Source of the DNA: Dehalococcoidia bacterium
GTDB taxonomy: Bacteria; Chloroflexota; Dehalococcoidia; Plut-88900
Length of the DNA stretch: 64,000 nucleotides
Assembly: GCA_965249275.1 (NCBI GenBank)
Contig: CBDFLQ010000005.1
Location: forward strand, 512,001-576,000
Reading direction: 5' to 3'
The notes under the pieces were generated by a model, which saw nothing but the letters and a program-made list of their open reading frames with translations, made no database searches and had not been told where the DNA came from. The translations under genes were made by a program, and so were the position numbers. Shown here piece by piece: positions 23,180-57,405 of the stretch. How positions within the stretch are numbered: position 1 is the first letter of the stretch; every line of letters begins with the position of its first letter.

Positions 23180-23291
23180 CAGATAGGGCAACCACGATGG
23201 GTCGATAGTGCGAGGCCGTCCCTCGCTCGACCCTTCGATCCGCCTCGGCGGACTTTCAGTTGGCTCAGGATGAGCGGCCACCTTTGCGGCA

Positions 23292-25022
23292 CTATGTCGA
23301 AGGGACGACCTGCACCGTAATGATATCTGTGTCGTGGTATTTATTGTGCTTGACCGAAGATGCGTAATGACGCAGGAGGCGGAAGGAAATCTCGCCCTCG
23401 TTCCGTAGCTCAGGCTGTTCGTTCATATAGGCCAGCTTGTCTTCCAGATTCTCACCCTCAGCAGTCACTACAAATTCCATCTCAATGGCGGAGTCTGCGC
23501 GACGGGCAGCGACAATCAGGCGCTTTTTGGCATCCTCTTCCGAACCCTCATCCTGCGATAGCAGACTCGAAAGAGTTTCTTCCCCGGCTGACCTGAGCCG
23601 GTTTGTCGATGCCTCGTTCCAGCCGGCGCTTGCAGCGAATTCCTGGAGGAAGGAGTCAATTCCGGGTAACGGCGAAATGTTCATGGCGACATTCAACCGC
23701 TTGCGACGTCTGGAAGTGACATCCATGAGCAGAGTGAGCAAAATTACGCAGACCGAGCCGGTTGTCATGCCGTTGCTGAGCAGAGTCCCCAAAGTTCCAG
23801 TCAGCAGGTCGGGCAGAATCGCCTGGTTCTGAAAACCTATTCCTAACCAGAGGGACACTCCTACAACTGCGGCTTTTCGTCCATCTATGCCGTCCTTGAA
23901 AACGGTCCTCATGCCCTGAACGAAGAGGAGCGACAACAGAAACACCAAGTACGCCACCAAGACGGGGCGTGGAGTGGCGACAACCAGCGCCAATAACTTT
24001 GGAGAGACCGCTACTGCTATCAGGATCAGGCCTCCATAGATACCCATGCGACGCGCTGCGACGCCGGTGAGCATGACCCGCGCGGAATTGGTGGCTCCGA
24101 TCATATTGGGAAGCGTGCCCAGAGCGGCGGCCAGAAGATTGGTCAATACCAGCAGATGGTGCGCCCCTTGAACTACACGGAAGTCAGTGGCGCGGGGCCT
24201 GCGCCAGGCCACCTGCTGAATCACTACGGTGTCACTGATCGAATTGATGGTGGTTGCCATGTTTACTATTACGAATCCCGGCAAAATCCCCCAGAAGGCT
24301 GCGTTAAAGCTCAGGTCGAAGCCTGCCCAGGGATAGCTGGGAAAACCAATCCAGTGGGCATCCATGACTAGCTGCCAGTCGTATGCGCCGAAAGGGACCG
24401 CTATGACGCACCCTACAACGATGCCGATAACCGGCGCCCATTGCTGTAACTTGGGCGACGCGAATAATCTCAGCATCATCAGGATGAACAGAGTGGTACC
24501 TGCAAGGATGGGGGCTGCCACGGAGGGAGCGCCTTCCGGCACATCAGAAAGCCTGCTTAGTACGACGGTTATTATCGTCGAGGCCAGCAGCATCAGGACG
24601 GTCCCGGCGACCAACGGGCTGATGACACGCCGCAGCCAGGAGAGCCGGGCGATGAACACAAACTGTATCAGCGATGAAGCGACGATCAGGGTCGAAAGCA
24701 GCGCCGGACCGCCGGCCAACAGCGCTGAGATACAGATTGGTATGAAGGCGGATGCAGAAACTACGCTGAGGGAATATCCCGACCCGAATCTCCAGAATCG
24801 AAAGATCTGCAAGATACCGCCTATTCCACAGACCACGAGAGCCGAAAAGAAAATCCAGGACAGGTAACCCTGGGACTGCCCACCCGCCACGGCGATGATC
24901 GACGTAGTGGCAGCCATTGCCGCCATGCGGGTCATGACAGTCTGGAATCCAAGAACCAGAGATGCCGGATGGCTCGGCCGCTCATCCGGTTGATAGAGGA
25001 TATTTTCGTTTACCTGTGGCAT
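23292..25022 (-). CDS. NCS2 (xanthine/uracil permease-like) transporter with C-terminal HATPase_c-like soluble domain
   Basis: Many TM helices with NCS2-like motifs (YQPDERP, LQIFRFWRFGSG, SPLVAGTVLML, TGVAARR, SPKL); ~135 aa soluble tail. Confidence 0.78.
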   Translation of the reverse strand: MPQVNENILYQPDERPSHPASLVLGFQTVMTRMAAMAATTSIIAVAGGQSQGYLSWIFFSALVVCGIGGILQIFRFWRFGSGYSLSVVSASAFIPICISALLAGGPALLSTLIVASSLIQFVFIARLSWLRRVISPLVAGTVLMLLASTIITVVLSRLSDVPEGAPSVAAPILAGTTLFILMMLRLFASPKLQQWAPVIGIVVGCVIAVPFGAYDWQLVMDAHWIGFPSYPWAGFDLSFNAAFWGILPGFVIVNMATTINSISDTVVIQQVAWRRPRATDFRVVQGAHHLLVLTNLLAAALGTLPNMIGATNSARVMLTGVAARRMGIYGGLILIAVAVSPKLLALVVATPRPVLVAYLVFLLSLLFVQGMRTVFKDGIDGRKAAVVGVSLWLGIGFQNQAILPDLLTGTLGTLLSNGMTTGSVCVILLTLLMDVTSRRRKRLNVAMNISPLPGIDSFLQEFAASAGWNEASTNRLRSAGEETLSSLLSQDEGSEEDAKKRLIVAARRADSAIEMEFVVTAEGENLEDKLAYMNEQPELRNEGEISFRLLRHYASSVKHNKYHDTDIITVQVVPST

Positions 25023-25290
25023 TGGGAGTTTTATGCTTTTCGATCAACTCGAAGGGGTGCGGTCTTCATGGGAAGTGGACTTGGACGCGACCGGGGTTGA
25101 ATAGATGGCGCCATGCTGCGACAGGGCGAACGGGGGGCTGGCCGGGGAATAGTGGAGGGCGTCCACCAGAGTAGCCCCCAACAGGGGAGGGGATGGATCC
25201 CGGCTCGGAGGCCGGGATGACGGAGGGAGAGGGGATGGATTCACGCCTCGGCGCACTTTCAGCCTGCCTTTGCAGGGATGGTGAAGGGGA

Positions 25291-26760
25291 TTACCAGTGG
25301 AGGTCTGGGTGGCGGGCGGCCTGCGCCTCGTCGAGGCGGGAGGAGGGGGTGGTGTGGGGGGCGGTTGTGACGATATCCGGGTCGGTCTCGGCCTCACGGG
25401 CGATGGACTTCATGGCGTCGACAAAGGTGTCGAGGGTGCGTTTGCTCTCACACTCGGTAGGTTCGATCATGAGGGCCTCGGGGACGACCTGGGGGAAGTA
25501 CATGGTCGGGGGGTGGAAGCCGTAGTCCATGAGGCGCTTGGAAATGTCCAAGGCCCGCACGCCCAAGGCCTTCTGCTTGGATGCCGAGAACACGACCTCG
25601 TGCATGCAAATGCGCTTGTTGGGGAGCAGGTAGTCTTCCTCCAGCCTTGAGAGGAGGTAGTTGGCGTTCAGGACGGCATTTTCGCTTATCTCCCGCATTC
25701 CGGGAGCGCCTAGGAGCCGGATGTAGGCGTAGGCCCTGAGGACGACACCGAAGTTACAGTGGAAGGCGCTTATCTTACCGATGGACTTGGAAGGCCGTCC
25801 AAGCTGGTATTCGGGGCCGGGGGAGCCGGGCGGGGACTTGTGTACGACGGGTGCGGGCAGGAAGTCGGCGAGGGACTCGGCGGCGCATACGGGCCCTGCG
25901 CCCGGGCCTCCACCACCGTGAGGGGTGCTGAAAGTCTTGTGCAGGTTGGAGTGGACGACGTCGAAACCCAGGTCACCGAAGCGGACTCGGCCGAGGATGG
26001 CGTTGAGGTTAGCGCCGTCGCCGTAGACCATTGCGCCGACATTATGGAGGGCGTCGCTGATTTCGAGGATACGGGGATTGAAGAGTCCGAGGGTGCTGGG
26101 GAGGGTGAGCATGAGGGCGGCGGTCTCTGATGTGGCGAGCTCTTTAAGGGCCTCGACGTCGAGGTTGCCCTGGGCGTCGGAGGGAGCGGTAACGAGGTCG
26201 TAGCCGCACATCTTGGAAGAGGCGGCGTTGGTGCCGTGGGCGGTGTCTGGGATGAGGATTTGCCTACGGGTGTCACCTTCGCCGCGGGACTCGTGGTATG
26301 CGCGGATCATGAGGAGGCCTGCCATCTCGCCGTGCGCGCCAGCAAGAGGAGCGAGGCTGACGGCCTTGGCGCCGGTAATCTCGGCGAGGAGGTTTTGTAG
26401 GCCGTACATGATGCCAAGGGCGCCCTGGACCGACTCGGCAGGCTGGAGGGGGTGAATCTGGGCAAAGCCCGGGAGCCGGGCGACTTCCTCGTGCCACTTG
26501 GGGTTGTACTTCATGGTGCAGCTGCCGAGGGGGTAGAAACCGCTGTCTATGCCGAAGTTCAGCTTGCTCAATCCGGTGAAGTAGCGGACCAAGTCAAGCT
26601 CACTGAGCTCCGGGATATCGAGCTCGGTGCGAAGGAGACCTTCCTCGGGGAGGGGGGCGGGGGGCACATCAAGCGCGGGGAGGGTCGTGCCCCGTGCGCC
26701 GGGGGCGTGGAGGTCTTTAAGGGTGAGCCGCCTGGATTGGGTGTCGGTGGTTTCGGTCAT
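25291..26760 (-). CDS. gcvPB: Glycine dehydrogenase (decarboxylating) subunit 2
   Basis: FYPLGSCTMKYNP, AGAHGE, HGTN, NLHKTFSTPHGGGGPG and GFHPPT. Confidence 0.96.
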   Translation of the reverse strand: MTETTDTQSRRLTLKDLHAPGARGTTLPALDVPPAPLPEEGLLRTELDIPELSELDLVRYFTGLSKLNFGIDSGFYPLGSCTMKYNPKWHEEVARLPGFAQIHPLQPAESVQGALGIMYGLQNLLAEITGAKAVSLAPLAGAHGEMAGLLMIRAYHESRGEGDTRRQILIPDTAHGTNAASSKMCGYDLVTAPSDAQGNLDVEALKELATSETAALMLTLPSTLGLFNPRILEISDALHNVGAMVYGDGANLNAILGRVRFGDLGFDVVHSNLHKTFSTPHGGGGPGAGPVCAAESLADFLPAPVVHKSPPGSPGPEYQLGRPSKSIGKISAFHCNFGVVLRAYAYIRLLGAPGMREISENAVLNANYLLSRLEEDYLLPNKRICMHEVVFSASKQKALGVRALDISKRLMDYGFHPPTMYFPQVVPEALMIEPTECESKRTLDTFVDAMKSIAREAETDPDIVTTAPHTTPSSRLDEAQAARHPDLHW

Positions 26761-26762
26761 GG

Positions 26763-28070
26763 CTAGGACTGGGCTTTCAGTGCTTGGACCAGGTGGTCTA
26801 TTTGGTCCTTGGTGTTCATTTCGGTGGCGCAGAGGAGCATTCCGTTGGGGACTGTGTCGCTGACGTCCAGGCCGCCGATGATCTGGGCGTCGAGGAGGGC
26901 GGCGTTGATCTCAGATGGGGACTTGGGACACCGGACTACGAATTCCCGGAAGAAGGGGTTATCAAAGGGCAGGGAATAGCCGGGAAGCTCGGAGATCTGG
27001 GAGGCGGCGTAGTGGGCCTTGTGGTAACAAAGCTCCGCGACGTGGGCAAGACCCTTGGGCCCGACGGCGGTGAGATAGGCGGTAGATGCGAGCGCGACGA
27101 GGGCCTCGCTGGTGCAGATATTGGAAGTGGCGGTCTGTCGCCGGATGTGCTGTTCACGGGTCTGGAGGGTGAGGACGAAGCCCTCGCGGCCACGGTCATC
27201 GGTAGTCTTGCCGACGATGCGGCCGGGCATCTGGCGCAGGTGCTTCGTCTTGGCCGAGAAGAGACCGACGTAAGGGCCACCGAAGGTGGTAGGAGAGCCG
27301 ACGGTCTGACCTTCGCCGACTACGATGTCGGCGCCGTAGTCTCCGGGTGACTTGAACATGGCGAGGGCGACGGGGTCGGCAGAGACGACCAGGAGGGCCT
27401 TGGCCTCGTGGGCTGCCTCAGCGTAGGGAGTCAGAGATTGGATTCGGCCGTAGAAGTCGGGGTACTGGGTGATTACGCAGGCGACATCTTCGTTGACGGT
27501 GAGGGCGTCCGGTGAGACAACGGTCATGCCGATGTTCTGTGGACCCATGTAGTGAGCGATGATATCCCGATAGAGTGGGGATACGGTATCCAGGACTACG
27601 ACGTTGCGGCGTCGGGTGACCCGGCAGGCCATGAGAGCGGCCTCGGCGAGCGCGGTGGAACCGTCGTACATACCGGCGTTGGCAACGTCCATGCCGGTGA
27701 GGTGGCAGACCATGGACTGGAAGTCGTAGGTGGTCTGGAGCGTGCCCTGGCTGATCTCGGCCTGGTATGGTGTGTAGGAGGTATAAAATTCGCTGCGGCC
27801 CGTGACATGGCGGACCACGCTGGGGATGTAGTGGTTGTAGGAGCCCGCACCGAGGAAGCAGGCGTAGTCATCGAGATTTGCGTTCTTGAGGGATAGGGCG
27901 CGGAGTTCGCGGATGAGCTCAAGCTCGGAGAGGGGGGCGGGGAGGTCGAGAGGGGGGTCCCGGTGGGACTCGGGGATTTCGAGGAACAGGTCTGCTACGG
28001 AGGCTACACCGGCGGACTCCAACATGGCCTTGCGGTCGGCGTCAGTGTTGGAGATGTAGGGAGAAGTCAT
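26763..28070 (-). CDS. gcvPA: Glycine dehydrogenase (decarboxylating) subunit 1
   Basis: FLGAG, YTPYQAEISQGTLQ, MYDG, PGRIVG and LQTREQHIRR..ATSNIC. Confidence 0.96.
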   Translation of the reverse strand: MTSPYISNTDADRKAMLESAGVASVADLFLEIPESHRDPPLDLPAPLSELELIRELRALSLKNANLDDYACFLGAGSYNHYIPSVVRHVTGRSEFYTSYTPYQAEISQGTLQTTYDFQSMVCHLTGMDVANAGMYDGSTALAEAALMACRVTRRRNVVVLDTVSPLYRDIIAHYMGPQNIGMTVVSPDALTVNEDVACVITQYPDFYGRIQSLTPYAEAAHEAKALLVVSADPVALAMFKSPGDYGADIVVGEGQTVGSPTTFGGPYVGLFSAKTKHLRQMPGRIVGKTTDDRGREGFVLTLQTREQHIRRQTATSNICTSEALVALASTAYLTAVGPKGLAHVAELCYHKAHYAASQISELPGYSLPFDNPFFREFVVRCPKSPSEINAALLDAQIIGGLDVSDTVPNGMLLCATEMNTKDQIDHLVQALKAQS

Positions 28071-28111
28071 GGCTTATCTGAGTCGTCGGTTGTGGGAGTA
28101 TGGCGCTGTCT

Positions 28112-28498
28112 TTACTCGGACTCGGCGGTGAGGGCATCGTACTGGTCGGCGGACATGAGGTTGTCCATTTCGGAGAGGTCTGAGAGTTGGACTTTGAGCA
28201 TCCACCCGGCTTCGTAAGGCTCCTCGTTGACGAGCTCGGGGCGATCCTGGAGCTCGGCATTTACCTCGATGATGTTGCCGCTGACGGGGGCGAATAGCTC
28301 AGAGACGGCCTTGGGGGACTCGATCTCTCCGAAGGACTTGAACTGCTCGAGGTTTTCGAGGTCGTCGGGGAAGTAGACGAACACGATGTCGCCTAGCTGG
28401 TCCTGGGCGAAGTGGGTGATACCGACGAGGGCTACGTCACCGGACTCGATCTTGACCCATTCGTGCTCTTTAGAGTACCTCCGGTCGGTTGGGTTCAT
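28112..28498 (-). CDS. gcvH: Glycine cleavage system H protein
   Basis: HEWV, GITHFAQDQLGDIVFV, ESPKAVSE (lipoyl-Lys), PELVN..PY..GW. Confidence 0.96.
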   Translation of the reverse strand: MNPTDRRYSKEHEWVKIESGDVALVGITHFAQDQLGDIVFVYFPDDLENLEQFKSFGEIESPKAVSELFAPVSGNIIEVNAELQDRPELVNEEPYEAGWMLKVQLSDLSEMDNLMSADQYDALTAESE

Positions 28499-28573
28499 AT
28501 CTTCTCCGCCAAGGCCTGATGACCCTCCCTCAAACAGATTCTGCGCTAAATGGCGGGAAACATCAAGGCGGAG

Positions 28574-29653
28574 CTAGGGGTCGGGCCTGGGGCGGCGGTA
28601 GAAGGGCATGGGCGTCACTGTGGCAGGGACGTGCCGGCCGCGGATATCGATATCTATGTTCGTGCCCTTGCGGGCGAGGTCTATGGGGACGAAACCCATG
28701 CCTATGTCCTGGTTGAGGCTCGGGGCACGGCCCCCGCTGGTAACCTCACCGACGGGCTGGCCTTCGTGGAGGATGGCCTGGCCGTGCCGGGGGATGCCTC
28801 GGGCGTCCATGGTGAAACCGACGAGCCGGCGATTGGGTCCTTGTTCCTTGACCTTGAGCAGGGCTTCCTTGCCGGTGAAGGGACCTGCTGTGAGGTCCAC
28901 GAAACGGCCCAGGCCCGCTTCGAAAGGGTTTACGGACGTGTTCATGTCGTTGCCGTAGAGCCGGAGGGAGGATTCGAGGCGGAGGCTGTCTCGGGCGACG
29001 AGGCCGCATGGTTCGACACCCGCGGCCCGGAGTCGGTCCCAGAGGGGGATGGCGGCGTCGGCGTTAACGATGATTTCAACTCCGTCCTCGCCGGTGTAGC
29101 CGGTGCGAGCGATGAAAGTATCAGGAGTTGGGACGGCGATGGAGAAGATTGGCGCGTTGTCGGGGTTGAAGGGTAGAAGGGACTGGACGATAGATGCGGC
29201 GCTCGGGCCCTGGACGGCGATCATGGTCGTCTCCCGAGTGTGGTCGACCATGTTGGCATTGGGGAAGTCGGAGATCTTATCGGTCAAGGTCTGGACGATT
29301 ACGTCACGGTTGGAGGCGTTGCATACGATGAAGATGCGCTGGTCCGGGAGCCGGTAGACGATGAGGTCGTCGAGGATGCCGCCGTCGGGGTTGCAGGCAA
29401 TGCAGTAGCGGGCGTGGCCGGTCGGGATGGAGGTGACGTCGGCGGTGACAACGGAGTCGGCGAGGGCCTCAGCGTCGGAGCCATTTAGGAAGAGCCTGCC
29501 CATATGGGAGACGTCGAACATGCCGGCGTGGGAGCGCACGGCGTGGTGCTCCTGGATGGCGGAGCCGTAGCGGGCAGGCATGTCCCAGCCGCCGAATTCG
29601 ATCATCTGGGCGTCGAGGGAAAGGTGGGCGGGGTGGAGGGGGGTGGTGTTCAT
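28574..29653 (-). CDS. gcvT: Glycine cleavage system aminomethyltransferase T
   Basis: TPLH, FGGWDMP, FDVSHMG, RTGYTGEDGVE and RDSLRLE. Confidence 0.96.
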   Translation of the reverse strand: MNTTPLHPAHLSLDAQMIEFGGWDMPARYGSAIQEHHAVRSHAGMFDVSHMGRLFLNGSDAEALADSVVTADVTSIPTGHARYCIACNPDGGILDDLIVYRLPDQRIFIVCNASNRDVIVQTLTDKISDFPNANMVDHTRETTMIAVQGPSAASIVQSLLPFNPDNAPIFSIAVPTPDTFIARTGYTGEDGVEIIVNADAAIPLWDRLRAAGVEPCGLVARDSLRLESSLRLYGNDMNTSVNPFEAGLGRFVDLTAGPFTGKEALLKVKEQGPNRRLVGFTMDARGIPRHGQAILHEGQPVGEVTSGGRAPSLNQDIGMGFVPIDLARKGTNIDIDIRGRHVPATVTPMPFYRRPRPDP

Positions 29654-29692
29654 TGCGTGTTCGCCTAATTTCAGGCGCGTCTACTTTTCATT

Positions 29693-29730
29693 CACCCTCA
29701 CCCTAGCCCTCTCCCGTCAAGGGAGAGGGG
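29693..29730 (+). repeat. Family A hairpin repeat CACCCTCACCCTAGCCCTCTCCC-(5 nt loop)-GGGAGAGGGG
   Basis: Intact copies at 9218-9252, 29693-29730, 37249-37286 and 46618-46655. Interrupted or degenerate copies at ~31470, 34540, 39747, 41204, 45044, 45424, 51320 and 57048. Confidence 0.9.
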
Positions 29731-29786
29731 ACAGAACTTCATCCCCACCTCTTGCGAAAGGGTCAGGCGAAGGGATGGAGGGGTGG

Positions 29787-30116
29787 TTACTTGAGGGGGG
29801 AATAGGAGGTCGGGCCGAGGAAGGTGTGGAACTCCCGGGAGACGATCGCGCCGTGCTTCTTGCCGACATCTTCGCGTCCGGCGAGCCAATCGGGGTGGTT
29901 GAAGAAGTCCTGCCACTTCTCCTCGCGCTCGTTGAGGGACTCCCAGGCGAGCATGTAGGAAAGGGCATTGGTGTAGTCCCCGGCCACGGGGGTCCAGGCC
30001 CCGACCAACCTCATGCCGACCTTTTCGAAGACCGGTACGGCAAGGCTTTCCATAACCTCGTTGAGTGCGGCCATTTTGCCGGGCGTGGCCTCGTATCTTC
30101 GCATCTCGTAGATCAT
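29787..30116 (-). CDS. NIPSNAP family protein
   Basis: MIYEMRRYEATPGK, GMRLVGAW, YMLAWESL..RE..W..F..HPDW and PTSYSPL; AAGGAGG RBS. Confidence 0.88.
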   Translation of the reverse strand: MIYEMRRYEATPGKMAALNEVMESLAVPVFEKVGMRLVGAWTPVAGDYTNALSYMLAWESLNEREEKWQDFFNHPDWLAGREDVGKKHGAIVSREFHTFLGPTSYSPLK

Positions 30117-30281
30117 CGGTGCACCTCCTTAGTGGTGGGTCGAGACGGGTGCATGTTACCACAGGGATGGTGGTTCATTGAATTTTGATCTAAGGGACCA
30201 GGACCTATCGAGACACTGGCAGGTTGACAAGTCGTGAAGCTAAGATAATGTAGAGGCAAGATATACATAGGTTGGAGATAT

Positions 30282-30674
30282 ATGCTTGCAAAGACACGTT
30301 CCCACATCGAGACGGAAGAATACTGGGAAAACTTAATCAAGAAGAGTGTTTCCCGTTACTTTCTACTGGGGATGCTGGCCGAGCGGCCGATGCACGGCTA
30401 TGAGCTGGCTGCCAGCATAGAAAGCTGCTGTGAGGGGTGGAGCAAACCGACTTCAGGCATGATTTACCCGACCATTAAGGAAATGACCGAGAGCGGCCAC
30501 ATTGCGAGCAGGGAAGAAGTAATCGGGGGACGGCTCAGGAAGGTGTGCGAGCTAACGGAATCCGGCAGAGAAGCCTACAAGACAGCAGCCGGAGTCTGGG
30601 CTCGGCTACTGCCCTATCTGGAGCAATCGGTCAAGAACGCGGGAATCGAGATTAAGAAGGCGGAGGTTGATTAA
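30282..30674 (+). CDS. PadR-family transcriptional regulator
   Basis: LAERPMHGYEL, GMIYPTI, RKVCELTESGR. Confidence 0.88.
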   Translation: MLAKTRSHIETEEYWENLIKKSVSRYFLLGMLAERPMHGYELAASIESCCEGWSKPTSGMIYPTIKEMTESGHIASREEVIGGRLRKVCELTESGREAYKTAAGVWARLLPYLEQSVKNAGIEIKKAEVD

Positions 30675-30721
30675 CTGCAACCGGCATGTAATGAGGGCTG
30701 ACTCAAGAGGAGGATACAGAC

Positions 30722-31459
30722 ATGGTGAACATCGACGAAAAGAAGATCAAAGAGGTGGTTAGGGAGCACTACGGGGGGTTGGCTCGGGGGGCGAGGTCCC
30801 AGATAGGCCAGGCGGGCACGGCGCCCGAGATGGCACTATATAGCGAGGAGGAGGTTGCGGCGCTGCCGAGCGAGGCAGTGCAGGCGTCGGCGGGGTGCGG
30901 GAATCCTACGGCTTTGGCGTCGCTGAAGGTTGGGGAGACAGTGGTGGATTTCGGGAGCGGGGGAGGGATCGACTGCTTTTTGGCGGCACAGCAAGTCGGG
31001 GAGGGGGGCCGGGTTATCGGGATCGACATGACGCCCGACATGATCGCCCTCGCGAACAAGAACCGGGACAAGCTCGGCTTGGCTAATGTGGAGTTTCACC
31101 TTGCCGAGATGGAGTGCACACCCTTGGGAGAGAGCACGGTGGACGTGATCATATCCAACTGCGTGATCACCCTGGCCCCAGACAAGGATGCGGTGTTCCG
31201 GGAGGCGTACCGGATTCTGAAACCCGGCGGAAGGATGTACATCTCAGATATGGTGCTTTGGGAGGCGCTGCCACCGGAAGTGCAATCCGACATGGCCCAG
31301 TGGGTGTCCTGCGTGAGCGGGGCAGACTTGAAGGAAACGTACATGGCACGGTTAAAGTCGGCGGGATTTGAGGAAGTGCGGATAATGTCGGACAAGCAGT
31401 CTGCTTGTTATCCAGAGGCTGTCCGGGACATGGACATTGTGGCGGTTAAGCCGGGATAG
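30722..31459 (+). CDS. arsM: Arsenite S-adenosylmethionine methyltransferase (ArsM-like)
   Basis: VREHYG, GCGNPTALA, DFGSGGGIDC, GIDMTPDM, SNCVI and WVSCVSGA: the three conserved Cys are present. Confidence 0.85.
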   Translation: MVNIDEKKIKEVVREHYGGLARGARSQIGQAGTAPEMALYSEEEVAALPSEAVQASAGCGNPTALASLKVGETVVDFGSGGGIDCFLAAQQVGEGGRVIGIDMTPDMIALANKNRDKLGLANVEFHLAEMECTPLGESTVDVIISNCVITLAPDKDAVFREAYRILKPGGRMYISDMVLWEALPPEVQSDMAQWVSCVSGADLKETYMARLKSAGFEEVRIMSDKQSACYPEAVRDMDIVAVKPG

Positions 31460-31540
31460 GGGGCAGGAACACCCGCACTCCCCTTGGCGAGCCTACGGGC
31501 CTAGCCCTCTCACCTCTGCGGCGCACCTACGGCCCGTCGA

Positions 31541-31651
31541 GACCACCTTACGTCCCTCCCCCCGCTCATACTTCAAGAGCCTCCCGCCCCTGCGGCTCTT
31601 CGACAGCACGAGCGGCCCCGGCCCATCCGACACTGGTTATGCAAAGGTATC
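31541..31651 (+). mobile_element. Degenerate MITE-B copy (left part deleted, carries a micro-insertion)
   Basis: Follows GTCGA in a family A loop; family C core; right end GTTATGCAAAGGTATC. Confidence 0.7.
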
Positions 31652-31740
31652 ATCGTAGGGGGGAGGGGATGGCGGATGTGAGTGGGCAAGTCCTAGATTC
31701 AGCGCGGAGCCTCGGGATGACATTTGACACGAGGAGCGTG

Positions 31741-32301
31741 TCAGGGGGATTGGTCGGGGGGTGGGGTGGCGGAGTAGTAGCCAGTGAGGAGGAGGTCTAG
31801 CTCCAGCATCAGCAGCTTGTTCCAGGCGATGCCGGCTCGAGTGGCGAGGTCCTTGTCTTCCAGGTCCTCGAGCAGAATTGTGCTGACGGTGGTCTGGACG
31901 AAACTCATTGTGCCCACCATGAAGGGCCCCGGGACCCGGCCCATGGGCTTCTGCATCCGGTGGCTGTGAGAAATGCCCATCGCGACCATGTGCCAGGCGA
32001 AGGAGTAGTCAAGCTTGGCGTCGGCGGTGCGGGCAAGCCACCGAGCGAGGCCCCTGCGCCGGTTTTCGACTCGCTCCTCGTCGATTGAGCCATCGGGCTT
32101 TCGGAAGAAATCGTGAGTGCCGGGCTGCTCCAGGAGATGGTCGTAGACGACCTTGGTTACCTCGTCGGCGCGGGCGATGACGGTTGGGCCGGTGGAACGG
32201 ATTAGCTGGGCGTCCTCCTCGGTGAAGCCGATAAACTCGGCCATCTGGAGGAGATGGAGGTCCATCTTGCGGCCCGATTTTCGGGTGACGGGGGCTTGCA
32301 T
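31741..32301 (-). CDS. Protoglobin / single-domain sensor globin
   Basis: FIGFTEED..LI, VYDHLL..P....FF, L.RWL, MGISH (proximal His) and AWNKLL. TACACT lies 6 nt before the ATG (leaderless). Confidence 0.8.
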   Translation of the reverse strand: MQAPVTRKSGRKMDLHLLQMAEFIGFTEEDAQLIRSTGPTVIARADEVTKVVYDHLLEQPGTHDFFRKPDGSIDEERVENRRRGLARWLARTADAKLDYSFAWHMVAMGISHSHRMQKPMGRVPGPFMVGTMSFVQTTVSTILLEDLEDKDLATRAGIAWNKLLMLELDLLLTGYYSATPPPDQSP

Positions 32302-32411
32302 TTGTCCAGTGTACTATACGGGACAATGACGGACACCCGCCTTGACACGGGTAGCGCGTTATCTAATATGAGGCAACCGCTTTTCGGCTCAAAGAGAGTC
32401 GAGTCTGGAGA

Positions 32412-33344
32412 ATGAAGATGGCAGAAGCTCGTTTACCTACCGAAGAAGAGGTCTTGGGGTATGCGGAGACATGCTCGAATTGGGGGCGTTGGGGGGCGGA
32501 GGACCAACTGGGGACGCTGAACCTGGTGACGGATGAGAAGAGGCGGCAGGCGGCAGGGCTGGTGAGGGATGGGGTGTCGGTGTCCTGCGCCTGGACAATC
32601 AAGACGGATATGCCGGGGGAGCACACGTCCCGGGTGCTGCACTACATGGTGGCGACGGGGGAAGCAGGCGCGGATGCCACGTGGTCGGGGGACTTCCTGG
32701 GGATGGCGTATCACGGCAACTGCATAACGCACGTGGATGCGCTGTGTCACGTGTTCACGGGTGGGAAGATGTACAACGGCCTCCCATCAACACTGGTGAA
32801 CAGTGAGAATGGGGCAGAGGCGGAGTCGATCACGCTGCTTTCTCAGGGGGTGGTGACGAGGGGGGTGCTGCTGGACATAGCGAGGCTGCGGGGCGAGGAC
32901 CGGATCGAATCGCCGGTGGCGATTACGCCGGATATATTGGAAGAGGCGGAGGTGTCGGAGAGAGTGAGAGTGGAATCGGGGGACGTACTGCTAATTCGGA
33001 CGGGGCACCTGGCTCGGTACTACGACGGTATCGTGACCGACACGTCTGACCCTAAGCCGGGGCCGCACGTTTCGTGTCTGCCGTGGTTCCGTGAGAGGGG
33101 AATAGCGATGCTGGGCGGCGACCAGAACAACGAGGTCTCGCCGAGCGGGTATGCGAACATCGGGGAGCCTATACACCAGGTCGGGATACCGGCGCTGGGG
33201 CTGTGGCTTATCGACAACATGAACCTTGAAGAGGTGGCGCAGGCGTGTGCGGAGCGGGGTCGGTGGGAGTTCATGATTGTGGTTGCGCCGCTCAGGTTTC
33301 GGGGGGCTACGGGGAGTCCGGCGAATCCGCTGGCGGTGTTTTAG
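32412..33344 (+). CDS. Cyclase-family metal-dependent hydrolase (kynurenine formamidase-like)
   Basis: NWGRWG..DQLGTLN, HG..ITHVDALCH, RGVLLD, GDVLLIRTG and GATGSPANP. TTGACA/TAATAT promoter upstream (32342-32369). Confidence 0.88.
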   Translation: MKMAEARLPTEEEVLGYAETCSNWGRWGAEDQLGTLNLVTDEKRRQAAGLVRDGVSVSCAWTIKTDMPGEHTSRVLHYMVATGEAGADATWSGDFLGMAYHGNCITHVDALCHVFTGGKMYNGLPSTLVNSENGAEAESITLLSQGVVTRGVLLDIARLRGEDRIESPVAITPDILEEAEVSERVRVESGDVLLIRTGHLARYYDGIVTDTSDPKPGPHVSCLPWFRERGIAMLGGDQNNEVSPSGYANIGEPIHQVGIPALGLWLIDNMNLEEVAQACAERGRWEFMIVVAPLRFRGATGSPANPLAVF

Positions 33345-33398
33345 TCACCAATTGGCCCCTTATCGGCTTTTCGTGTCATTCACCTTAGGAGTTGAGAA

Positions 33399-34529
33399 GT
33401 GACAGCGAAGTTTGTGGATATAGACGGGCACATCATGGAGCCGGCCAACCTGTGGCTCGACTATATCGAGCCGGAGTACCGGGAACATGCGTTGCGGATA
33501 TCGGAGGATGAGGACGGGCTGGAGTATCTCAATGTAGACGGGAATAAGTCGTACTTCGGGCGAGGGGGGTCGTTGGGTGCACTGGGGGCTATCGGGCAGG
33601 ACGTGAGGCCGTATCTGGAGCCGGGCCGGATCTCTTGGGAGGAGGCGATGGTCCCGGGAGGGTACATCTCCGGCGAACGGGTGAAGGTGATGGACGCCGA
33701 GCGAATCGACGTCACGATGGTGTACCCATCACTGGGGCTGATGTGGGAGTACGACTGCGACGACTACAGGATCGCGGCGGCTAACTGTCGGGCGTACAAC
33801 AATTGGGTGTTCGATTTTTGTGGCGGGGCGCCGGAACGGCTGGTCCCGGTCGCACATATCCCTATGGGGGACGTCGATGAGGCAATAAAGGAGATGAAGA
33901 GGACGGCGGGGCTCGGGGCTAAGGCGATGATGGTAGGGTCGGACTTTCACGAGGGCAGGACCTACGGACACTCATACTATGACCCGTTCTGGGCGGAGGC
34001 CCAGGCGATAGACATGCCGATAACCATCCACCCATCGACGGGGAAGGGGTCTCTGACATCGGTGGCGTATCCCAACAGGGAAGAGCTGACGGTCTGGTGG
34101 GTGAACATCCACGGGGGCGAGAACGTGAAGATGAACTTCACCAGCCTCTTCAATCATGGTACGTTCGACAAGTTTCCAGACCTGAAGGTCGTGATATTGG
34201 AGGCGGGTATCGGGTGGCTGGTGTGGTGGCTCGACAGGCTCGACGAGAAGTTCGAGGTCAACGGGTTTACGACGCCCATGCAGGAAGTCCCGAGCACCTA
34301 CTTCAAGCGGCAGGGGTTCATATCGATGGACCCGGATGAGAGGCTGGCCAAGTTCAGTATCGAGGTTCTGGGGGCAGACAAGTTCATGTGGGCCTACGAT
34401 TTTCCGCACTCGGACTCGATTCTCGACCCGGTGAGGGAATTGGAGGAGAATCTGGCGGGGTTGTCGGAGGAGGACCAGTTGAAGGTGTTTGGGGAGAATG
34501 CGGTGGAGCTGTATAAGCTGGCGGTGTAG
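33399..34529 (+). CDS. Amidohydrolase_2-family metalloenzyme, paralogue 1
   Basis: DIDGHIMEP, RAYNNW, YDPFW, TIHP, ILEAG and DFPHSDS; GTG start after AGGAG. Confidence 0.9.
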   Translation: MTAKFVDIDGHIMEPANLWLDYIEPEYREHALRISEDEDGLEYLNVDGNKSYFGRGGSLGALGAIGQDVRPYLEPGRISWEEAMVPGGYISGERVKVMDAERIDVTMVYPSLGLMWEYDCDDYRIAAANCRAYNNWVFDFCGGAPERLVPVAHIPMGDVDEAIKEMKRTAGLGAKAMMVGSDFHEGRTYGHSYYDPFWAEAQAIDMPITIHPSTGKGSLTSVAYPNREELTVWWVNIHGGENVKMNFTSLFNHGTFDKFPDLKVVILEAGIGWLVWWLDRLDEKFEVNGFTTPMQEVPSTYFKRQGFISMDPDERLAKFSIEVLGADKFMWAYDFPHSDSILDPVRELEENLAGLSEEDQLKVFGENAVELYKLAV

Positions 34530-34739
34530 AGGACTCTTTCACCCTCACCTATCGAGGGACCTTTGGACAACTACTATTTCGGAACTCGGATCACCCTCAC
34601 CCCACCCCCCTCCCATCCCGAGGCCCCGCGAGGGATCTACAGCATCCCTCCCATATACCACCTCATTCGTTGCCATTACGCCCTTCTTCTCCCCCCTCCC
34701 GTCATTCCCGACCCCTATCGGGAATCCATCCCCCTCCCA

Positions 34740-35240
34740 CCAGTACTGAATTAGAGGCCCACGTGCGTGCTCTGCACGCACGTGGGCCTCTATTCTTCTC
34801 TCCCCCTCTCCCTTGAAGGCCCTAAGGGTCGAAGATGCGCCTTTGGCGTGAGAGGGGGACAAAGGGGGTGAGGGTTCCCCGGTGGGGCTGGGGCGGGTCC
34901 CCTTTCTCCCGTGTCATTCCGATGCCCCGCGAGGAATCTGGGGTGGGGCGTCCTGTCCCCCTCCCACCCCCCCCGTCATTCCCGACTCCGATCGGGAATC
35001 CATCCCCCTTCCCCCCCAGTACTGAACTAGAGGGAGACGTTGGCGCAGACGCGCCAACGTCTCCCTCTGTTCTTCTCTCCCCCTCTCCCTTGAAGGCCCT
35101 AAGGGTCGAAGATGCGCCTTTGGCGTGAGAGGGGGACAAAGGGGGTGAAGGTTCCCCGGTGGGGCTGGGGCGGATCCCCTTTCTCCCGTGTCATTCCGAT
35201 GCCCCGCGAGGAATCTGGGGGGGGCGTCCTGTCCCCCTCC
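34740..35240 (-). repeat. Tandem ~277-bp composite repeat unit (family E scaffold plus D-type hairpins), inverted relative to the other copies
   Basis: ~34793-34960 is nearly identical to ~35070-35237. Family E copies at 34740-34878 and 35016-35155. Confidence 0.88.
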
Positions 35241-35293
35241 CCTTTTACTAGGGATGGGGCCGTAGGCTCGCCTCGGCGAGTGACACGAACCCC

Positions 35294-35362
35294 TTGACCC
35301 TACCTGAACACCCGTGCTATTCTCCCCACCGTTCGAACACCAACCTAACTATCTCAAGGAGG
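35294..35362 (+). promoter_or_regulatory. Putative sigma70 promoter with LexA-box-like site and an RBS lacking a start codon
   Basis: TTGACC(35294)-18-TATTCT(35318) with TG extension; GAAC-ACCC-GTGC (35306-17) in the spacer; AAGGAGG at 35356-62. Confidence 0.45.
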
Positions 35363-36039
35363 AACCAAAAACCCAGGGAAGCCCACCCGACCCACCCGAG
35401 GACTCAACGCCTCAGCCCATCCCAACGGTCGCCTAGCGACATGCGGCTCAAGCGACCGGCGCCATCTCCTCATCCCACCGGGTCTCGTGTCCCCTTCCCT
35501 GACCACCCAGGCGATGGAGGGTCCATCGACTCTACGCGGCACGCCCCCTTCCAGGGGCCCCTGCCGAATCGGTGCCCCCTATCAGGGGAGCGCCTATGCG
35601 TCGGCATCTACTTTGCCGGCGAAGCTAAACGGCCCGGCGTTACCGGGATTAGGGCCATCGAGCCCCTACGCGGCTCCACCGTCGTCACCATCGGCGAACT
35701 CCATTCCGCCCATGACGACTTCGAGCCGAATGCTGTCCCGCACAGCGGTCGAGCGCTGATGCGGGACGGATTGCCCCACCCAGGGACGCCCTCGACACCG
35801 GCAAGTCCCCAAAGGCATGCGTGGGGATACGGCAGGACAGCCGCCGATGTGATAGATACGCTGTGGTGGACCACAAGCGTCGGCGTAGGTGCCATCGTCA
35901 TCCTGCATCAGAGTCCCGGACCTTCCATCGCCTTCCCCTCCAAAACAAAAACCGAAACCCCAAATCCCAATCGAATATGGAACATCCGCCTCGGGCGGGT
36001 CCGCCTCAGGAGGACTGAATAACCACCCCATCCTCCTCA

Positions 36040-36068
36040 TTGTACCCGCCGTGGATGTGGAGTAGCAT
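36040..36068 (+). promoter_or_regulatory. Putative promoter of amidohydrolase 2, homologous to that of amidohydrolase 3 (37329-37357)
   Basis: TTGTAC-17-TAGCAT versus TTGTGC-17-TAACAT, with shared GTGGATGTG and CATTCCC..CAATCGT. Confidence 0.6.
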
Positions 36069-36110
36069 TCCCCCCAATCGTCAGGCGCATTTTAGTTAAG
36101 GAGACAGGAA

Positions 36111-37241: not shown

Positions 37242-37399
37242 AGAGAATCACCCTCACCCCAACCCTCTCCCGTCAAGAGAGAAGGGACAGGATATCTTTT
37301 CAAAGCGACATGAAGTCTGAAATTCGCGTTGTGCATGGTGTGGATGTGCAGTAACATTCCCGTCAATCGTTGGGCCCCCTGTAATTAAGGAGACGAGAG

Positions 37400-38530: not shown

Positions 38531-38591
38531 CAACCAGCTGTAGCTCGGGCCCCTTACAACAGGTCTCGCTCGAACTGGGAGGTAAGTAAAG

Positions 38592-39737: not shown

Positions 39738-39775
39738 GGTTAATCTCACCCTTACTTTGGTCCTCTCCCCGTCAA

Positions 39776-39908: not shown

Positions 39909-40037
39909 ATCGAGGGAGAGGAGGCTGGATATCACCCTCTGCCCCAGAGATAAAAATGGAAACAACAAGAATTACAGCATTCTTGTTGTTTCTTTAACAG
40001 TAGGGGACGTACGCTTCAGGAGACTTGAATTTTGACG

Positions 40038-42410: not shown

Positions 42411-42647
42411 GAGTTTGTGCCCGTTTCCATTGGGTGGACTAGATAGTAGTATAGCTTTCGGGGGCTGGGAGAGTGGGGGGTTAGGAAGAAGGTGAGGGGG
42501 CAAGTACTAGATTCCTCGCGGAGCCTCGGAATGACAGTGAAAAGGGCCTCGGTTTGACAGGGGAGAGGTGGGGAGGGCGACCACGAGAGTCGCTCCTACG
42601 GGGAGTGGGAATGGAAGAACGGAAAGAGCACGAATGGAGGGGTAAGA

Positions 42648-43754: not shown

Positions 43755-43921
43755 GGGGAGAGGCCCCCACCCGGAATCCGCTCGACCCTTCGACCTGGCT
43801 CAGGATGAGCGGATTCTCCCCGCCCTAGGGGTTTTAAGGAGGAAGGTGAATGGGAAGTCCTAGATTCCTCGCGGGGCCGCGGAATAACAGGTAAAAAGAG
43901 TTTTGGAATGGAGAAGGAAAA

Positions 43922-45028: not shown

Positions 45029-45059
45029 GGGGGGGAGAGGAATCACCCTCACTAATCGA

Positions 45060-45190
45060 GAGCCCTTTGCGTAACTGCAGATCGCATCTCTGTTGTTCCA
45101 TCCATATGCCCTAACACCCCCCTGCTCATACTTCGAGAGCCTCAGCACGAGCGGCCCCGGCCCCGCCAACACCGGTTATGCAAAGGTCTC
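45060..45190 (+). mobile_element. MITE-B (131 bp)
   Basis: GAGCCCTTTGCGTAAC...GTTATGCAAAGGTCTC, flanked by ATCGA/ATTGA in a family A remnant. Confidence 0.82.
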
Positions 45191-45212
45191 ATTGAGGGAG
45201 AAGGGATAGGAC

Positions 45213-45284
45213 GGTACAGACCGGGGACATAGGTAACAGTTGTTCGGGGAGATAGGTAACACATGTTCGGAGACATGGGTAACA
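45213..45284 (+). mobile_element. Solo IS481-like transposon end with three 23-bp-spaced GA(C/G)AT(A/G)GGTAACA sites
   Basis: Nearly identical to 57073-57123. The family assignment is from recalled similarity to IS481-type ends. Confidence 0.55.
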
Positions 45285-45316
45285 GATCGTGGGGTTTTCC
45301 CTGTGAGGGGTGTTCG

Positions 45317-45350
45317 GTAGGGAGGGCGACCAGCCGGTCGCCCTCCCTAC
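45317..45350. repeat. GTAG-type REP-like palindrome
   Basis: GTAGGGAGGGCGACC-AGCC-GGTCGCCCTCCCTAC. Related copies, mostly ending in CTAC, at ~8221-8247, 21196-21223, 42571-42599, 51272-51297 and 57245-57270. Confidence 0.75.
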
Positions 45351-45513
45351 CGGTAGAGGGAGGAGTTCGATTGAAGGGTGGGGGGTTTTTGGGTAGAATC
45401 GGGCGGCGGGGGAGCCACTATGGCCCTATCTCTCACGCCTCGGCGTACGCTAAAGGCGCACTTGCAGCATCTACGACTCCTATCAAGGGAGAGGGGATGG
45501 ACGGAGGAAATAA

Positions 45514-46605
45514 TTGAAGTTTGACAGAGTAATTTCGGCGGATTCCCATGTTGTCGAGCCGACGGAGCTGTGGTGGGACGCGATAGGGAAGAAGTTCGGA
45601 GAGCGGACGCCGCGTATCGTCAATGAACACCTGGGGAAGAAGGGCCGTTTCTTCTACACGGGGGCTCAGTATCTGAAGATAGACGAGACCGAGGCCGAGA
45701 TGGCGGATATGGGAGACCTGGTCGACGCGGGCAAGGACCCGGCGAAGCGGGTCAAGTTCCAACAGGAGGCCAAGGTCGAGGCGGAGGTGCTGAACCCGAC
45801 ATTGATGATGCTGGCGATGCAGGGCCGGGACCGGGAAGTGGTAAGGGCGGCGGCGCAGACATATAACGACTGGCTGGCCGAGTTCGTGTCGTACAGTCCC
45901 AAGACGTTGATCGGGATCGGGGCGGTGCCTATGGAGGACGTGGATTGGGGGTTGGCGGAGCTGGAACGGGTATCGAAAAAGGGCCTTAAGGGTGCCATGA
46001 TCAACGTCGTTCCGCCTGAGGGGTCGAAGCCGTACAGGGACAAATACTACGATCCGTTTTGGGCGGCGGCGGAGGACGCAGGGATTTCCATCACTTTGCA
46101 CTCTATAACGGGTCGGGTGCCGGACCCCCTGCACTTCCACACCAGGGAAGACATGGAGAGGGCGCCTAGCACGTGGGTCGATCTGTTCCTGGAGTTGACT
46201 ACTACGCTGGCTGACGACTTCATCTTCGGGCGGATACTAGACCGGTTTCCAAAACTGAAGCTGATCTGCGCCGAGTGGGAGATATCCTGGGTGCCGATGT
46301 TCATGTTCCGGATGGACCAGGTGCAAGGGGCAGCGGCGCACCGGATGCCGATGGAGAAGCTGGACATGCTGGCCAGCGACTACATAAAGAAACGGATGTG
46401 GCACGGGATGATCGATGACCCGTTCGGGCGGGACGCGGTAAATCACATTGGGGCGGACGGGGTGATGTGGGGGTCGGACTTCCCGCATATCCGGTCGATA
46501 GGGCTGGATGCGCATGCTTCACTGGAACGGATATTGGACGGTCTTTCGAGCGAAGACCAGGAGAAGCTGGTCGGGGGGAATGTGGCGAAGGTGCACGGGT
46601 TGTAG
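45514..46605 (+). CDS. Amidohydrolase_2-family metalloenzyme, divergent paralogue 6
   Basis: SADSHVVEP, YNDWL, YDPFW, TLH and WGSDFPH; TTG start after GGAGG. Confidence 0.88.
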   Translation: MKFDRVISADSHVVEPTELWWDAIGKKFGERTPRIVNEHLGKKGRFFYTGAQYLKIDETEAEMADMGDLVDAGKDPAKRVKFQQEAKVEAEVLNPTLMMLAMQGRDREVVRAAAQTYNDWLAEFVSYSPKTLIGIGAVPMEDVDWGLAELERVSKKGLKGAMINVVPPEGSKPYRDKYYDPFWAAAEDAGISITLHSITGRVPDPLHFHTREDMERAPSTWVDLFLELTTTLADDFIFGRILDRFPKLKLICAEWEISWVPMFMFRMDQVQGAAAHRMPMEKLDMLASDYIKKRMWHGMIDDPFGRDAVNHIGADGVMWGSDFPHIRSIGLDAHASLERILDGLSSEDQEKLVGGNVAKVHGL

Positions 46606-46680
46606 GGGGGAGGGAGTCACCCTCACCCTAGCCCTCTCCCGTCAAGGGAGAGGGGATTCCGAAGGATAGGAGAAAAAGAG

Positions 46681-57039: not shown

Positions 57040-57072
57040 GGGGGAATCACCCTCACCCTAGCCCTCTCCGGG

Positions 57073-57123
57073 TGTATAGACCGGGGACATGGGTAACAGT
57101 TGTTCGGGGAGATAGGTAACACA
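57073..57123 (+). mobile_element. Solo IS481-like end at the loop position of a family A hairpin
   Basis: TGTATAGACCGGGGACATGGGTAACAGTTGTTCGGGGAGATAGGTAACACA directly after CACCCTCACCCTAGCCCTCTCCGGG. Confidence 0.55.
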
Positions 57124-57405
57124 TTCTATCGACTTAGATCCCGCCTCGGCGCATCTTCGACAGGGCGAGCGGAGTACCCCGCCCTTAGGAATGGAAAGTC
57201 CGTACATCGTGGGCGGGTTGTGGGGTGAGGAGCGTGCGGGGCGTTAGGGCGATTGGCCAATCGCCCCTACGGAAGGGAGAGGGGACTGGCCCCCCACCGC
57301 TCATACTTCGACGGGCTCCCGCCGCAGGCGGATCTTCGGCAGGGCGAGCGGCTCGCCATCCTCCCGACGCAAAAGTCCCGTTGAGGGGGAGGGGATTGGG
57401 GGCGG

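Follow-up and report, generated by a model that had tools for sequence, protein, structure and literature searches.

Small dispersed repeats (SDRs) of the Nostocaceae, reportedly described by Elhai et al. in 2008, are said to be mobile at a length of 21–27 nt, and RNA-mediated mobility has reportedly been proposed for them. Mitochondrial double-hairpin elements are longer units, based on AT or GC clusters, that occur in organelle DNA of fungi, algae and sponges. Here we describe a unit of 21 or 22 nt, termed E, in a 64,000-nt stretch of DNA (the window; C5:512001–576000) from a Dehalococcoidia bacterium whose genome comprises 2.90 Mb in 7 contigs at 59% GC. A reading of the window from its letters alone (the sequence-only reading) had proposed a family of micro-insertions inside other repeats, and we find that these are real: they have a fixed length, belong to one family and lie in many unrelated host repeats, in at least 40 contexts.

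The analogy with SDRs drawn in the sequence-only reading fits the behaviour of E, with its clean 21/22-nt inserts in repeats and its self-nesting. Both share the 21–27 nt length class, insertion inside other repeats, nesting in their own copies, a small predicted fold with compensatory changes, recent mobility and the lack of a known mobilising enzyme. E is nonetheless a different sequence family, and it occurs in Dehalococcoidia and in metagenome-assembled genomes (MAGs) labelled as other phyla rather than being confined to heterocystous cyanobacteria. It also shows a strict GC-skew polarity, which is not known to have been reported for SDRs, and no reverse transcriptase was found with it in the three E-bearing genomes scanned, which argues against the RNA route proposed for SDRs. 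For the HIP1-rich cyanobacteria, PMC5861425 finds SDRs in none but the Nostocaceae.

Repetitive extragenic palindromic (REP) elements and REPINs offer a second comparison. The relevant sections of Di Nocera et al. 2013 (PMC3733652) describe palindromes tagged with GTAG or CGTC that go with RAYT and have stems of 5–13 bp; according to the same sections, the GTAG-23 REPs of T. roseum are inserted in small palindromes, and CGTC REPs have no known transposase. As in that description, E is a short extragenic hairpin with a conserved tag at one end, reaches high copy number and forms sub-families with compensatory stem changes and G·T pairs. Some REP families likewise lie in small palindromes, the CGTC REPs are likewise without a transposase in those sections, and the Planctomycetales host repeats of E begin with GTAG. 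In contrast, the stem of E has 4–5 bp instead of the 5–13 bp given there, its ‘tag’ is a covarying mini-hairpin and not GTAG or CGTC (the complement of GTAG occurs only in ATCTACGAC), it is a single unit of fixed length and not an inverted doublet, and no RAYT was found in the genus genomes scanned.

IS608 and ISDra2 are described in the pertinent part of PMC6006769 as inserting into and excising from the lagging-strand template as single strands. Measured against that account, E resembles the IS200/IS605 group in its end hairpins, in insertion 3′ of a short target without duplication and, as proposed below, in a single-strand logic with an orientation tied to the fork. It differs in being ~30-fold smaller, with no room for guide sequences, and in needing only a pyrimidine as target where that group uses a tetra- or pentanucleotide; a Y1 transposase was not found in the genus genomes scanned, TnpB occurs in 1–2 of 9 genus members, and the hairpin-to-tail distances examined gave no full-length parent with the same ends. 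Miniature inverted-repeat transposable elements are set apart by their size (70–300 bp versus 21–22 nt), by ends that are inverted copies, unlike those of E, and by target-site duplication, which E lacks. Mitochondrial double-hairpin elements have in common with E two small hairpins, intergenic dispersal, mutual insertion and an unknown mechanism; their organelle hosts and greater length separate them from E, to which they bear no sequence relation. Overall, E belongs to the kind of very small mobile hairpin repeats and lies outside any named family, since it bears neither a GTAG nor a CGTC tag, is not cyanobacterial, and came without RAYT, TnpA or a parent element in the searches made. In the part of the literature that could be searched, there was no paper on REP elements in Dehalococcoidia and none on the smallest mobile hairpin repeats of prokaryotes; a search with six 14-mers of E found no paper carrying them, with one unrelated primer match, and an Rfam scan of the whole window (E-value ≤ 1) placed no family over E or its host repeats.

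Results

Copy sets and anatomy of E

The window’s genome is referred to as G000; G001–G005 include relatives of the same genus, among which G002, G003 and G005 are sister species. A 21–22-nt unit of the described shape was present at every coordinate given in the sequence-only reading, whose strict consensus matched 7 times in the window and 71 times in the genome. A looser two-hairpin regular expression yielded 240 candidates across G000. On contig C5 it matched 112 times, versus 42 in a first-order Markov simulation, and because of this large chance background our counts rely either on the 195 candidates whose tail belongs to recurrent tail families or on copies verified by an empty site. 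The latter set, which is blind to the tail, comprises segments with a first hairpin carrying at most one substitution, any 10 nt thereafter and an exact empty site (107 segments, 87 distinct sequences; 83 with family tails).

On the strand used in the sequence-only reading, E takes the form N1-CGCC-(2–3 nt loop)-GGCG-N1′-R-YY-TNC-RR-Y, over 21 or 22 nt. The earlier description as a mini-hairpin of 4–5 bp followed by a tail of ~9 nt stands for the unit and for hairpin 1, but the 9-nt tail is itself a covarying mini-hairpin of 2–3 bp, and E thus consists of two mini-hairpins back to back. Taken over the 87 distinct sequences of the verified set, the 19 fixed columns hold ~20.7 bits, and inserts in different hosts have ~21 bits of conserved sequence in common.

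Pairing in both stems was evaluated over the same 87 copies. Positions t2 and t8 of the tail pair in 87% (shuffle mean 47%), t3 and t7 in 92% (42%), and N1 and N1′ form Watson–Crick pairs in 57.5% (26.5%), a share that rises to 88.5% (38.6%) if A··C is also counted. None of 5000 shuffles reached the observed value in any of these comparisons, and slid controls gave 3–15%. Kinship among copies inflates such shuffle tests, so a sounder guide is how many kinds of pair occur: five double-pair combinations occur in the tail (TC/GA 38, CT/AG 14, TG/CA 9, CC/GG 8 and CG/CG 4), with the variants ATCTTCGAC, ATCTGCGAC, ACTTTCAGC, ATGTTCCAT and GCCTACGGC covarying as a stem. The closing position is A··C in 27/87 copies for hairpin 1 and in 54/87 for the tail (t1–t9), where it is the commonest state, and a T·C mismatch is kept in hairpin 1 of 22/87 copies. 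On the complementary strand the closing A··C of both hairpins becomes G·T (G·U), and the tail loop TNC reads GNA closed by C–G, which makes a C-[GNA]-G triloop hairpin. In the relevant portion of PMC13037366, C-GNA-G is the core of an extraordinarily stable mini-hairpin DNA.

Insertion precision, target sites and nesting

The precision of insertion was assessed by removing each segment and searching the joined 9+9-nt flanks as an exact 18-mer elsewhere in the genome. Such matches were obtained for 64/240 candidates with the boundaries as defined and for 74/240 with both boundaries shifted by −1, falling to 15/240 at −2 and 10/240 at +1, and removal of any other length gave 0–4/240. The flanks therefore recur only when exactly 21 or 22 nt are taken out, and the boundaries are not ragged. 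Ungapped BLAST found an empty paralogue for 150/240 candidates, again with a peak at shifts 0 and −1.

At seven sites in host repeats, insert length takes only the values 0, 21, 22 or 42–43 nt. Site A is empty in 36 cases and filled with 21 nt in 4, 22 nt in 2 and 43 nt in 2; site A0 is empty in 37, with 21 nt in 6, 22 nt in none and 42 nt in 3; site C1 is empty in 30, with 21 nt in 7 and 22 nt in 2, and site C3 is empty in 49, with 21 nt in 4 and 22 nt in 1, neither holding a 42–43-nt insert; and site E, in the host family of that letter, is empty in 16, with 21 nt in none, 22 nt in 4 and 43 nt in 1. The 42–43-nt inserts are two units of E, nested or in tandem, and in several cases in the genome one copy splits another between GGCG[C/T] and ATCT. 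Longer, cargo-bearing forms bounded by hairpin 1 and a tail were not found in the distances examined, which were those of nested forms (13–28 nt between the two parts, 21–43 nt for the forms) and background.

The targets are diverse. Counted by 8+8 flanks, the 83 verified insertions occupy 47 distinct contexts, and by 5+5 flanks they occupy 40, so that E is spread over at least 40 target contexts instead of one or two ancestral positions copied along with their hosts. The base at −1 is a pyrimidine in 81 of the 83 (C in 54, T in 27), which replaces the earlier rule that most insertions follow TC or AC; C does not occur at −2, and G occurs a single time at +1. In 63/83 insertions E ends with the base that is found at −1, which explains why the junction is ambiguous by 1 nt; there is no target duplication beyond this, in line with the duplication of at most 1 nt that had been noted in the window.

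Gain and loss between sister species

Orthologous loci differ by whole units of E. Synteny with G005, G002 and G003 extends across the intergenic region at window 41196–41414, where the flanking genes are 89–92% identical; the CTC^AG site of this region holds a 21-nt copy in G002 and is empty in G005, and a second site differs likewise. Along 100 kb of synteny among four species (G000, G005, G002 and G003), the window sites at 34828 and 35105 are filled in G000 and empty in G002, one site is filled only in G003 and another only in G005, a further one is filled in G005 and G002 and not in G000, and one nested extra copy is confined to G005.

Orthology was then traced genome-wide between 196 copies in G000 and 143 copies in 79% of G005, genes of the two being ~92% identical. 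No orthologous locus was found for 109 G000 and 61 G005 copies, and the orthologous flanks had diverged for 54 and 47, respectively. The site was filled in both genomes for 21 G000 and 15 G005 copies, while 8 and 7 copies with conserved flanks fell in other classes, several of which are additional units (21, 22 or 44 nt) in nested or tandem position. Finally, 4 G000 copies and 13 G005 copies faced an exactly empty site in the partner, which amounts to 17 clean filled/empty differences. These orthologous differences show recent gain or loss of E, the two being pooled in general, with outgroup polarisation at a few sites.

Within 10 nt of E, the mismatch density was 14.7% at the 17 polymorphic orthologous sites versus 4.6% at 36 sites filled in both, and two loci show an identical G/A difference at +5. 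The polymorphic loci are also more diverged overall (19–21% versus 11–14% at 21–160 nt from E). Twenty public sequencing runs were recorded as carriers, all as short Logan contigs, with no RNA run listed among them. Contigs of four runs over window 25700–45699 showed no 21/22-nt indel in the 12 of 36 rows listed, and these contigs break at the repeats, so that the comparison carries no weight in either direction.

Location and strand polarity

Intergenic DNA makes up ~27% of the genome (rough gene calls cover 73%) and holds 207/240 candidates; most of the 33 that lie in open reading frames have non-family tails. Between co-directional genes, E points the same way as the genes in 46 cases and the opposite way in 72; the bias is weak, and in the 72 the complementary strand is the sense strand.

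A much stronger polarity was observed relative to GC skew. In 167/195 copies of G000, the ACGCC strand coincides with the strand that is locally richer in G (30-kb skew, E masked; p = 3e-25), and genes show no co-orientation with the skew (759:709). Over the 2.485 Mb of the G005 chromosome that were covered (79% of the complete sequence), 133/143 copies follow the skew, including those in patches of flipped sign, as do 27/35 copies in 8-kb loci from other phyla. This polarity, at 86–93% of copies in G000 and G005, is a new observation that was not part of the sequence-only reading. Empty host sites of the seven host families have the same skew polarity as E in 177/186 cases. All seven families of host hairpin repeats are polar with GC skew (in the window for example at 29693–29724, 46618–46649 and 60790–60808), and the whole repeat population is thus strand-specific.

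The leading strand is usually G-rich. By this usual rule, the ACGCC strand would have the sequence of the lagging-strand template. The GC skew of G000 contigs C5–C7 and of G005:C1:1-2485000 is strong (±0.1 to 0.2) and changes sign several times per Mb; such patchy skew without gene co-orientation suggests many inversions or an unusual replication layout.

Distribution in the genus and beyond

The strict pattern occurs 72 times in G000 and 4–132 times in each of the 8/8 other genomes of the genus, compared with 0 in three other genera of the family and 0–2 in 29 other families of the class; a reversed-pattern control in the same genomes gave 0–2. A scan for the 21-mer with one genome per species returned at least 97 stretches, where ~9 would be expected by chance on a rough estimate. 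Many of the matches listed are in Dehalococcoidia MAGs that have the same host repeats as the window. Others among them come from MAGs labelled Planctomycetales, Cytophagia, Desulfovibrionales, KSB1, Ignavibacteria, Thermodesulfobacteriota, Zixiibacteriota or unclassified, the labels being the submitters’ own, and the single coding-sequence matches listed from Centipeda/Selenomonas, Paenibacillus and Anaeromyxobacter look like chance. Viral contigs gave 2 matches to the 21-mer, which is near chance.

In five MAGs of other labelled phyla, an occurrence that the sequence-only reading did not see, there are 3–18 copies of E each, with reversed-pattern controls at 0, and the 21-mer sits in each lineage’s own hairpin repeats. 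The palindrome CCGCCGCGGCGG[AG]C of G044 is empty at ~17 sites and has an insert directly after CCGC at 7; six of these inserts are exactly 21 nt (one reversed) and the seventh is a 25-nt variant of E. In G043, five filled sites and no empty ones were found.

A second small module, CGGAGCGAAGCGGAG, fills lineage-specific hairpin loops in two phyla (Planctomycetales and Cytophagia MAG loci L034, L070 and L042). A sister copy of the hairpin that bears CGGAGCGAAGCGGAG has hairpin 1 of E, reversed, at the same loop position. Other micro-modules may behave like E.

Multi-copy genes and a repeated non-coding element

Among 20 scanned families of multi-copy proteins of G000, the only transposases were rve/IS481 and DDE_Tnp_1; the rest are metabolic, the largest paralogue families scanned being amidohydrolases and other metabolic enzymes. 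The two transposase types were rejected as movers of E since they make target duplications.

The genome also contains a repeated non-coding element of ~700 nt at C5:156938-157667 and in about nine other places (for example C7:453330-454062 and, on the minus strand, C6:840914-841637), none of them in the window. It begins with a promoter-like TTGAC-N17-TATATT, substitutions in it fall evenly on the three codon phases (rates 0.175/0.189/0.156), Rfam gives no match to it, and its longest frame has none in Pfam. All 9 genus genomes carry it (16–51 matching pieces each) and 0/3 sister genera do. Copies differ by insertions of E. As a general helper of E this element was rejected, being absent from 5/5 unrelated E-bearing MAGs.

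Copies and empty sites in the window

The window copies lie on both strands. Family-C hairpin repeats hold four of them on the plus strand: one of CCGCC..GGCGG type with tail ACTTTCAGT at 23240–23260 (4 empty-site matches with 3 substitutions); a degenerate one at the CTC^AG site at 31584–31604 (40 empty-site matches, one of them exact, at C5:551848); ACGCCACGGCGC + ATCTTCGAC at a CTC^AG site at 41321–41341, with three exact empty sites and an orthologous site that is filled in G003; and the 22-nt copy CCGCCGCAGGCGG + ATCTTCGGC, also at CTC^AG, at 57319–57340 (7 empty-site matches with 3 substitutions). A further plus-strand copy at 57141–57161 follows an ATC^AG site, and no empty paralogue was found for it. 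In family-A repeats, again on the plus strand, degenerate copies occupy the CAC^CC site at 31479–31499 (T..A type with tail GCCTACGGG; 6 empty-site matches, the best with 1 substitution) and at 41213–41233 (5 empty-site matches with 3 substitutions), and a degenerate 22-nt copy at the CTCTC^CC site at 31512–31533 had no empty paralogue. The plus-strand copy ACGCCTCGGCGC + ACTTTCAGC at 25243–25263 follows GGATTC in a D-like repeat and likewise lacks an empty paralogue at up to 3 substitutions.

Minus-strand copies cluster between 34828 and 35998. The 22-nt copy ACGCCAAAGGCGC + ATCTTCGAC at 34828–34849 lies in a family-E repeat, has an exact empty site at C7:981135 and is matched in G002 by an orthologue without exactly these 22 nt; a second family-E repeat holds the 22-nt copy at 35105–35126, opposite which G002 has a 22-nt gap (flank identity 1.0/0.92). 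Further copies are TCGCCGAGGCGA + GCCTACGGC, of T..A type, at 35259–35279, and one with tail ATGTTCCAT at 35977–35998, the latter being additional to those previously recognised. On the plus strand at 45435–45477, an outer 21-nt copy (45435–45446 + 45469–45477) is split between its hairpins by an inner 22-nt copy with tail ACTTGCAGC (45447–45468). This self-nesting, which had been reported for the window, is real, and the same nested pair is kept in the sister species G005 and G002.

For 9 of the 12 insertions originally claimed for the window, an empty paralogue matches the joined 14+14-nt flanks with no more than 3 substitutions, in several cases exactly; the claim lacks this support at 57141–57161, 31512–31533 and 25243–25263. 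The empty family-E copies were located on the plus strand at 60790–60808 (target site CCCCCTCTC^CCTTAGGGCC) and 61117–61135, and a plus-strand family-A repeat at 29693–29724 has both of its target sites (CAC^CC and CTCTC^CC) empty.

Paralogous genes of ~365–385 aa run through window 33399–39737 and 42648–46605, with E-bearing repeats in the spacers between them; three members of one four-member blastp family are at 33399–34529, 36111–37241 and 37400–38530. In four metagenome runs, the empty family-A repeat at 29691–29732 reached 25–40x the depth of adjoining genes, and many contigs end there. A minus-strand match at 20854–20955 resembles a PyrR-binding-site RNA (47.1 bits versus an Rfam gathering threshold of 54, E-value 0.0025).

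Discussion

The explanation we favour, with slightly more confidence than doubt, is that E is a non-autonomous, ultra-small mobile DNA element, inserted into single-stranded DNA exposed at the replication fork by a trans-acting catalyst outside the known families that were tested. E is put in, and possibly taken out, precisely, with no target duplication beyond the 1-nt ambiguity and directly 3′ of a pyrimidine. Other short hairpin repeats serve as targets at their loops or close by, as do the junction of the two hairpins of E itself and the point where another copy ends. Polarity would be fixed relative to the fork, with the ACGCC strand on the G-rich strand, and insertion would take place in single-stranded DNA in the way that IS200/IS605 and REP-type hairpin elements are handled, with the catalyst acting in trans. 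Fixed length, many targets, nesting, recent gain or loss, strand polarity and pairing covariation are observed here; the single-stranded substrate, the coupling to replication and the dedicated enzyme are parts of the model that we infer.

Several findings weigh against this explanation. The co-occurrence with HUH/RAYT (Y1), reverse transcriptase, IS110 or DUF559 genes that had been suggested did not materialise, as none of these follows E. PF01797, which covers the Y1 HUH enzymes IS200 TnpA and RAYT, had 0 matches in G000, G001, G003 and G004 while control genomes matched, and the reverse transcriptase domain RVT_1 (PF00078) was not found in G000, G001 or G004; each of G001 and G004 is a chromosome in one contig that carries over 120 strict copies of E. 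PF01797 is present in G041 and G044, E-bearing MAGs of other phyla. IS110 occurs in 4/8 genus members and in two E-free genera, TnpB in 1–2/9 genus members, and DUF559 in 5/8 genus members and in E-free genera, none of them co-occurring with E; Y2_Tnp (PF04986) had no match, with control genomes equally silent. These scans cover assemblies without the plasmids or phages of these populations, so a helper may be encoded off the chromosome. Folding is a further difficulty: nearest-neighbour folding of single copies as DNA or RNA is no better than that of shuffles (z −0.1 to −2.1), the energy model predicts only hairpin 1 and not the tail hairpin, and the G·T-compatible closing pairs fall on the strand opposite to the proposed exposed template. 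The GC skew is patchy, and the assignment to the lagging-strand template rests on the skew rule, replication direction itself being deduced from skew. Finally, both flanks are repeated in 135/195 copies, and each host site prefers one subtype of E, a pattern that conversion among the repeats of one family would produce as well.

Gene conversion within host families is the main rival, if an unlikely one. E would rarely enter a host family and would then be copied or erased by homologous repair between dispersed repeats, its polarity being that of the host repeats. The specificity of host site and subtype, the predominance of repeated flanks, the equal polarity of empty and filled hosts, the mismatches concentrated next to E at polymorphic sites with the repeated +5 G/A, and the lack of an enzyme among the families tested all agree with such copying. 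However, a separate process would still be needed for first entry into at least 40 contexts, for self-nesting and tandem copies, for the 50 of 195 copies with one unique flank and the 10 with two, and for entry into the unrelated hairpin repeats of other phyla; the raised mismatch density is partly an alignment effect at gap edges and is tempered by the greater overall divergence of the polymorphic loci. Gene conversion and transposition may also act together. Much less credible still is the idea that E is immobile and that selection repeatedly produced a motif with a function, for instance in protein binding or as the hairpin at a transcript end. Such a motif would fit the intergenic location and conserved structure of E, but it is contradicted by the clean orthologous presence or absence of 21/22 nt, which point mutation cannot make, and by the quantised inserts of 0, 21, 22 or 42–43 nt.

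Two further routes both seem quite improbable to us. In one, as proposed for SDRs, the complementary strand would be transcribed, fold with G·U pairs and be returned to DNA. The closing A··C pairs that become G·U on that strand (27/87 in hairpin 1, 54/87 in the tail), and its position as the sense strand between co-directional genes (72 versus 46), would suit an RNA intermediate, but G·T pairs form in DNA too, and this route is disfavoured because no reverse transcriptase was found in G000, G001 or G004 and because polarity tracks GC skew (86–93%) and not transcription, the gene-direction bias being weak. In the other, which dispenses with a dedicated enzyme, a nuclease-resistant GNA-triloop oligonucleotide of the complementary strand, for example an Okazaki flap, would be ligated into the nascent lagging strand at pauses caused by hairpin repeats, and the bulge would escape mismatch repair. 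Strict polarity, fixed length and tandem copies agree with this scheme, as does the C-GNA-G core on the complementary strand, given what the cited part of PMC13037366 says of its stability; the tested candidates are absent or without co-occurrence, and E-bearing genomes of several phyla share none of them, Y1 being present in G041 and G044 and not in the genus. Yet the scheme is pure inference, the ~21 bits kept across phyla suggest a sequence-specific partner rather than structure alone, and the specificity of host site and subtype is left unexplained.

Returning to E as a mobile element, a bolder version of the favoured explanation can be put forward tentatively. E might be the smallest transposable DNA yet outside cyanobacteria, a two-hairpin, single-stranded DNA element of 21–22 nt whose one conserved sequence has spread between phyla. 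It would insert at the fork either without a dedicated transposase, through flap processing, ligase and topoisomerase acting on a stable mini-hairpin oligonucleotide, or by an enzyme class not yet tied to transposition, and the polar host repeats would be part of the same system.

How elements too small for transposon ends move has been an open question since the SDRs of 2008, and it is equally open for REPs without RAYT. E offers a clean system in which to address it, with a fixed 21/22-nt unit, hundreds of filled and empty sites, turnover at ~92% gene identity and several complete chromosomes. E-type repeats also break short-read assemblies, and their 21–22-nt indels can pass for alignment errors. 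The strict skew polarity favours single-stranded DNA at the fork over a route through RNA, and because unrelated phyla carry the same 21-mer, it is feasible to screen comparatively for the catalyst or to prove that E can do without one.

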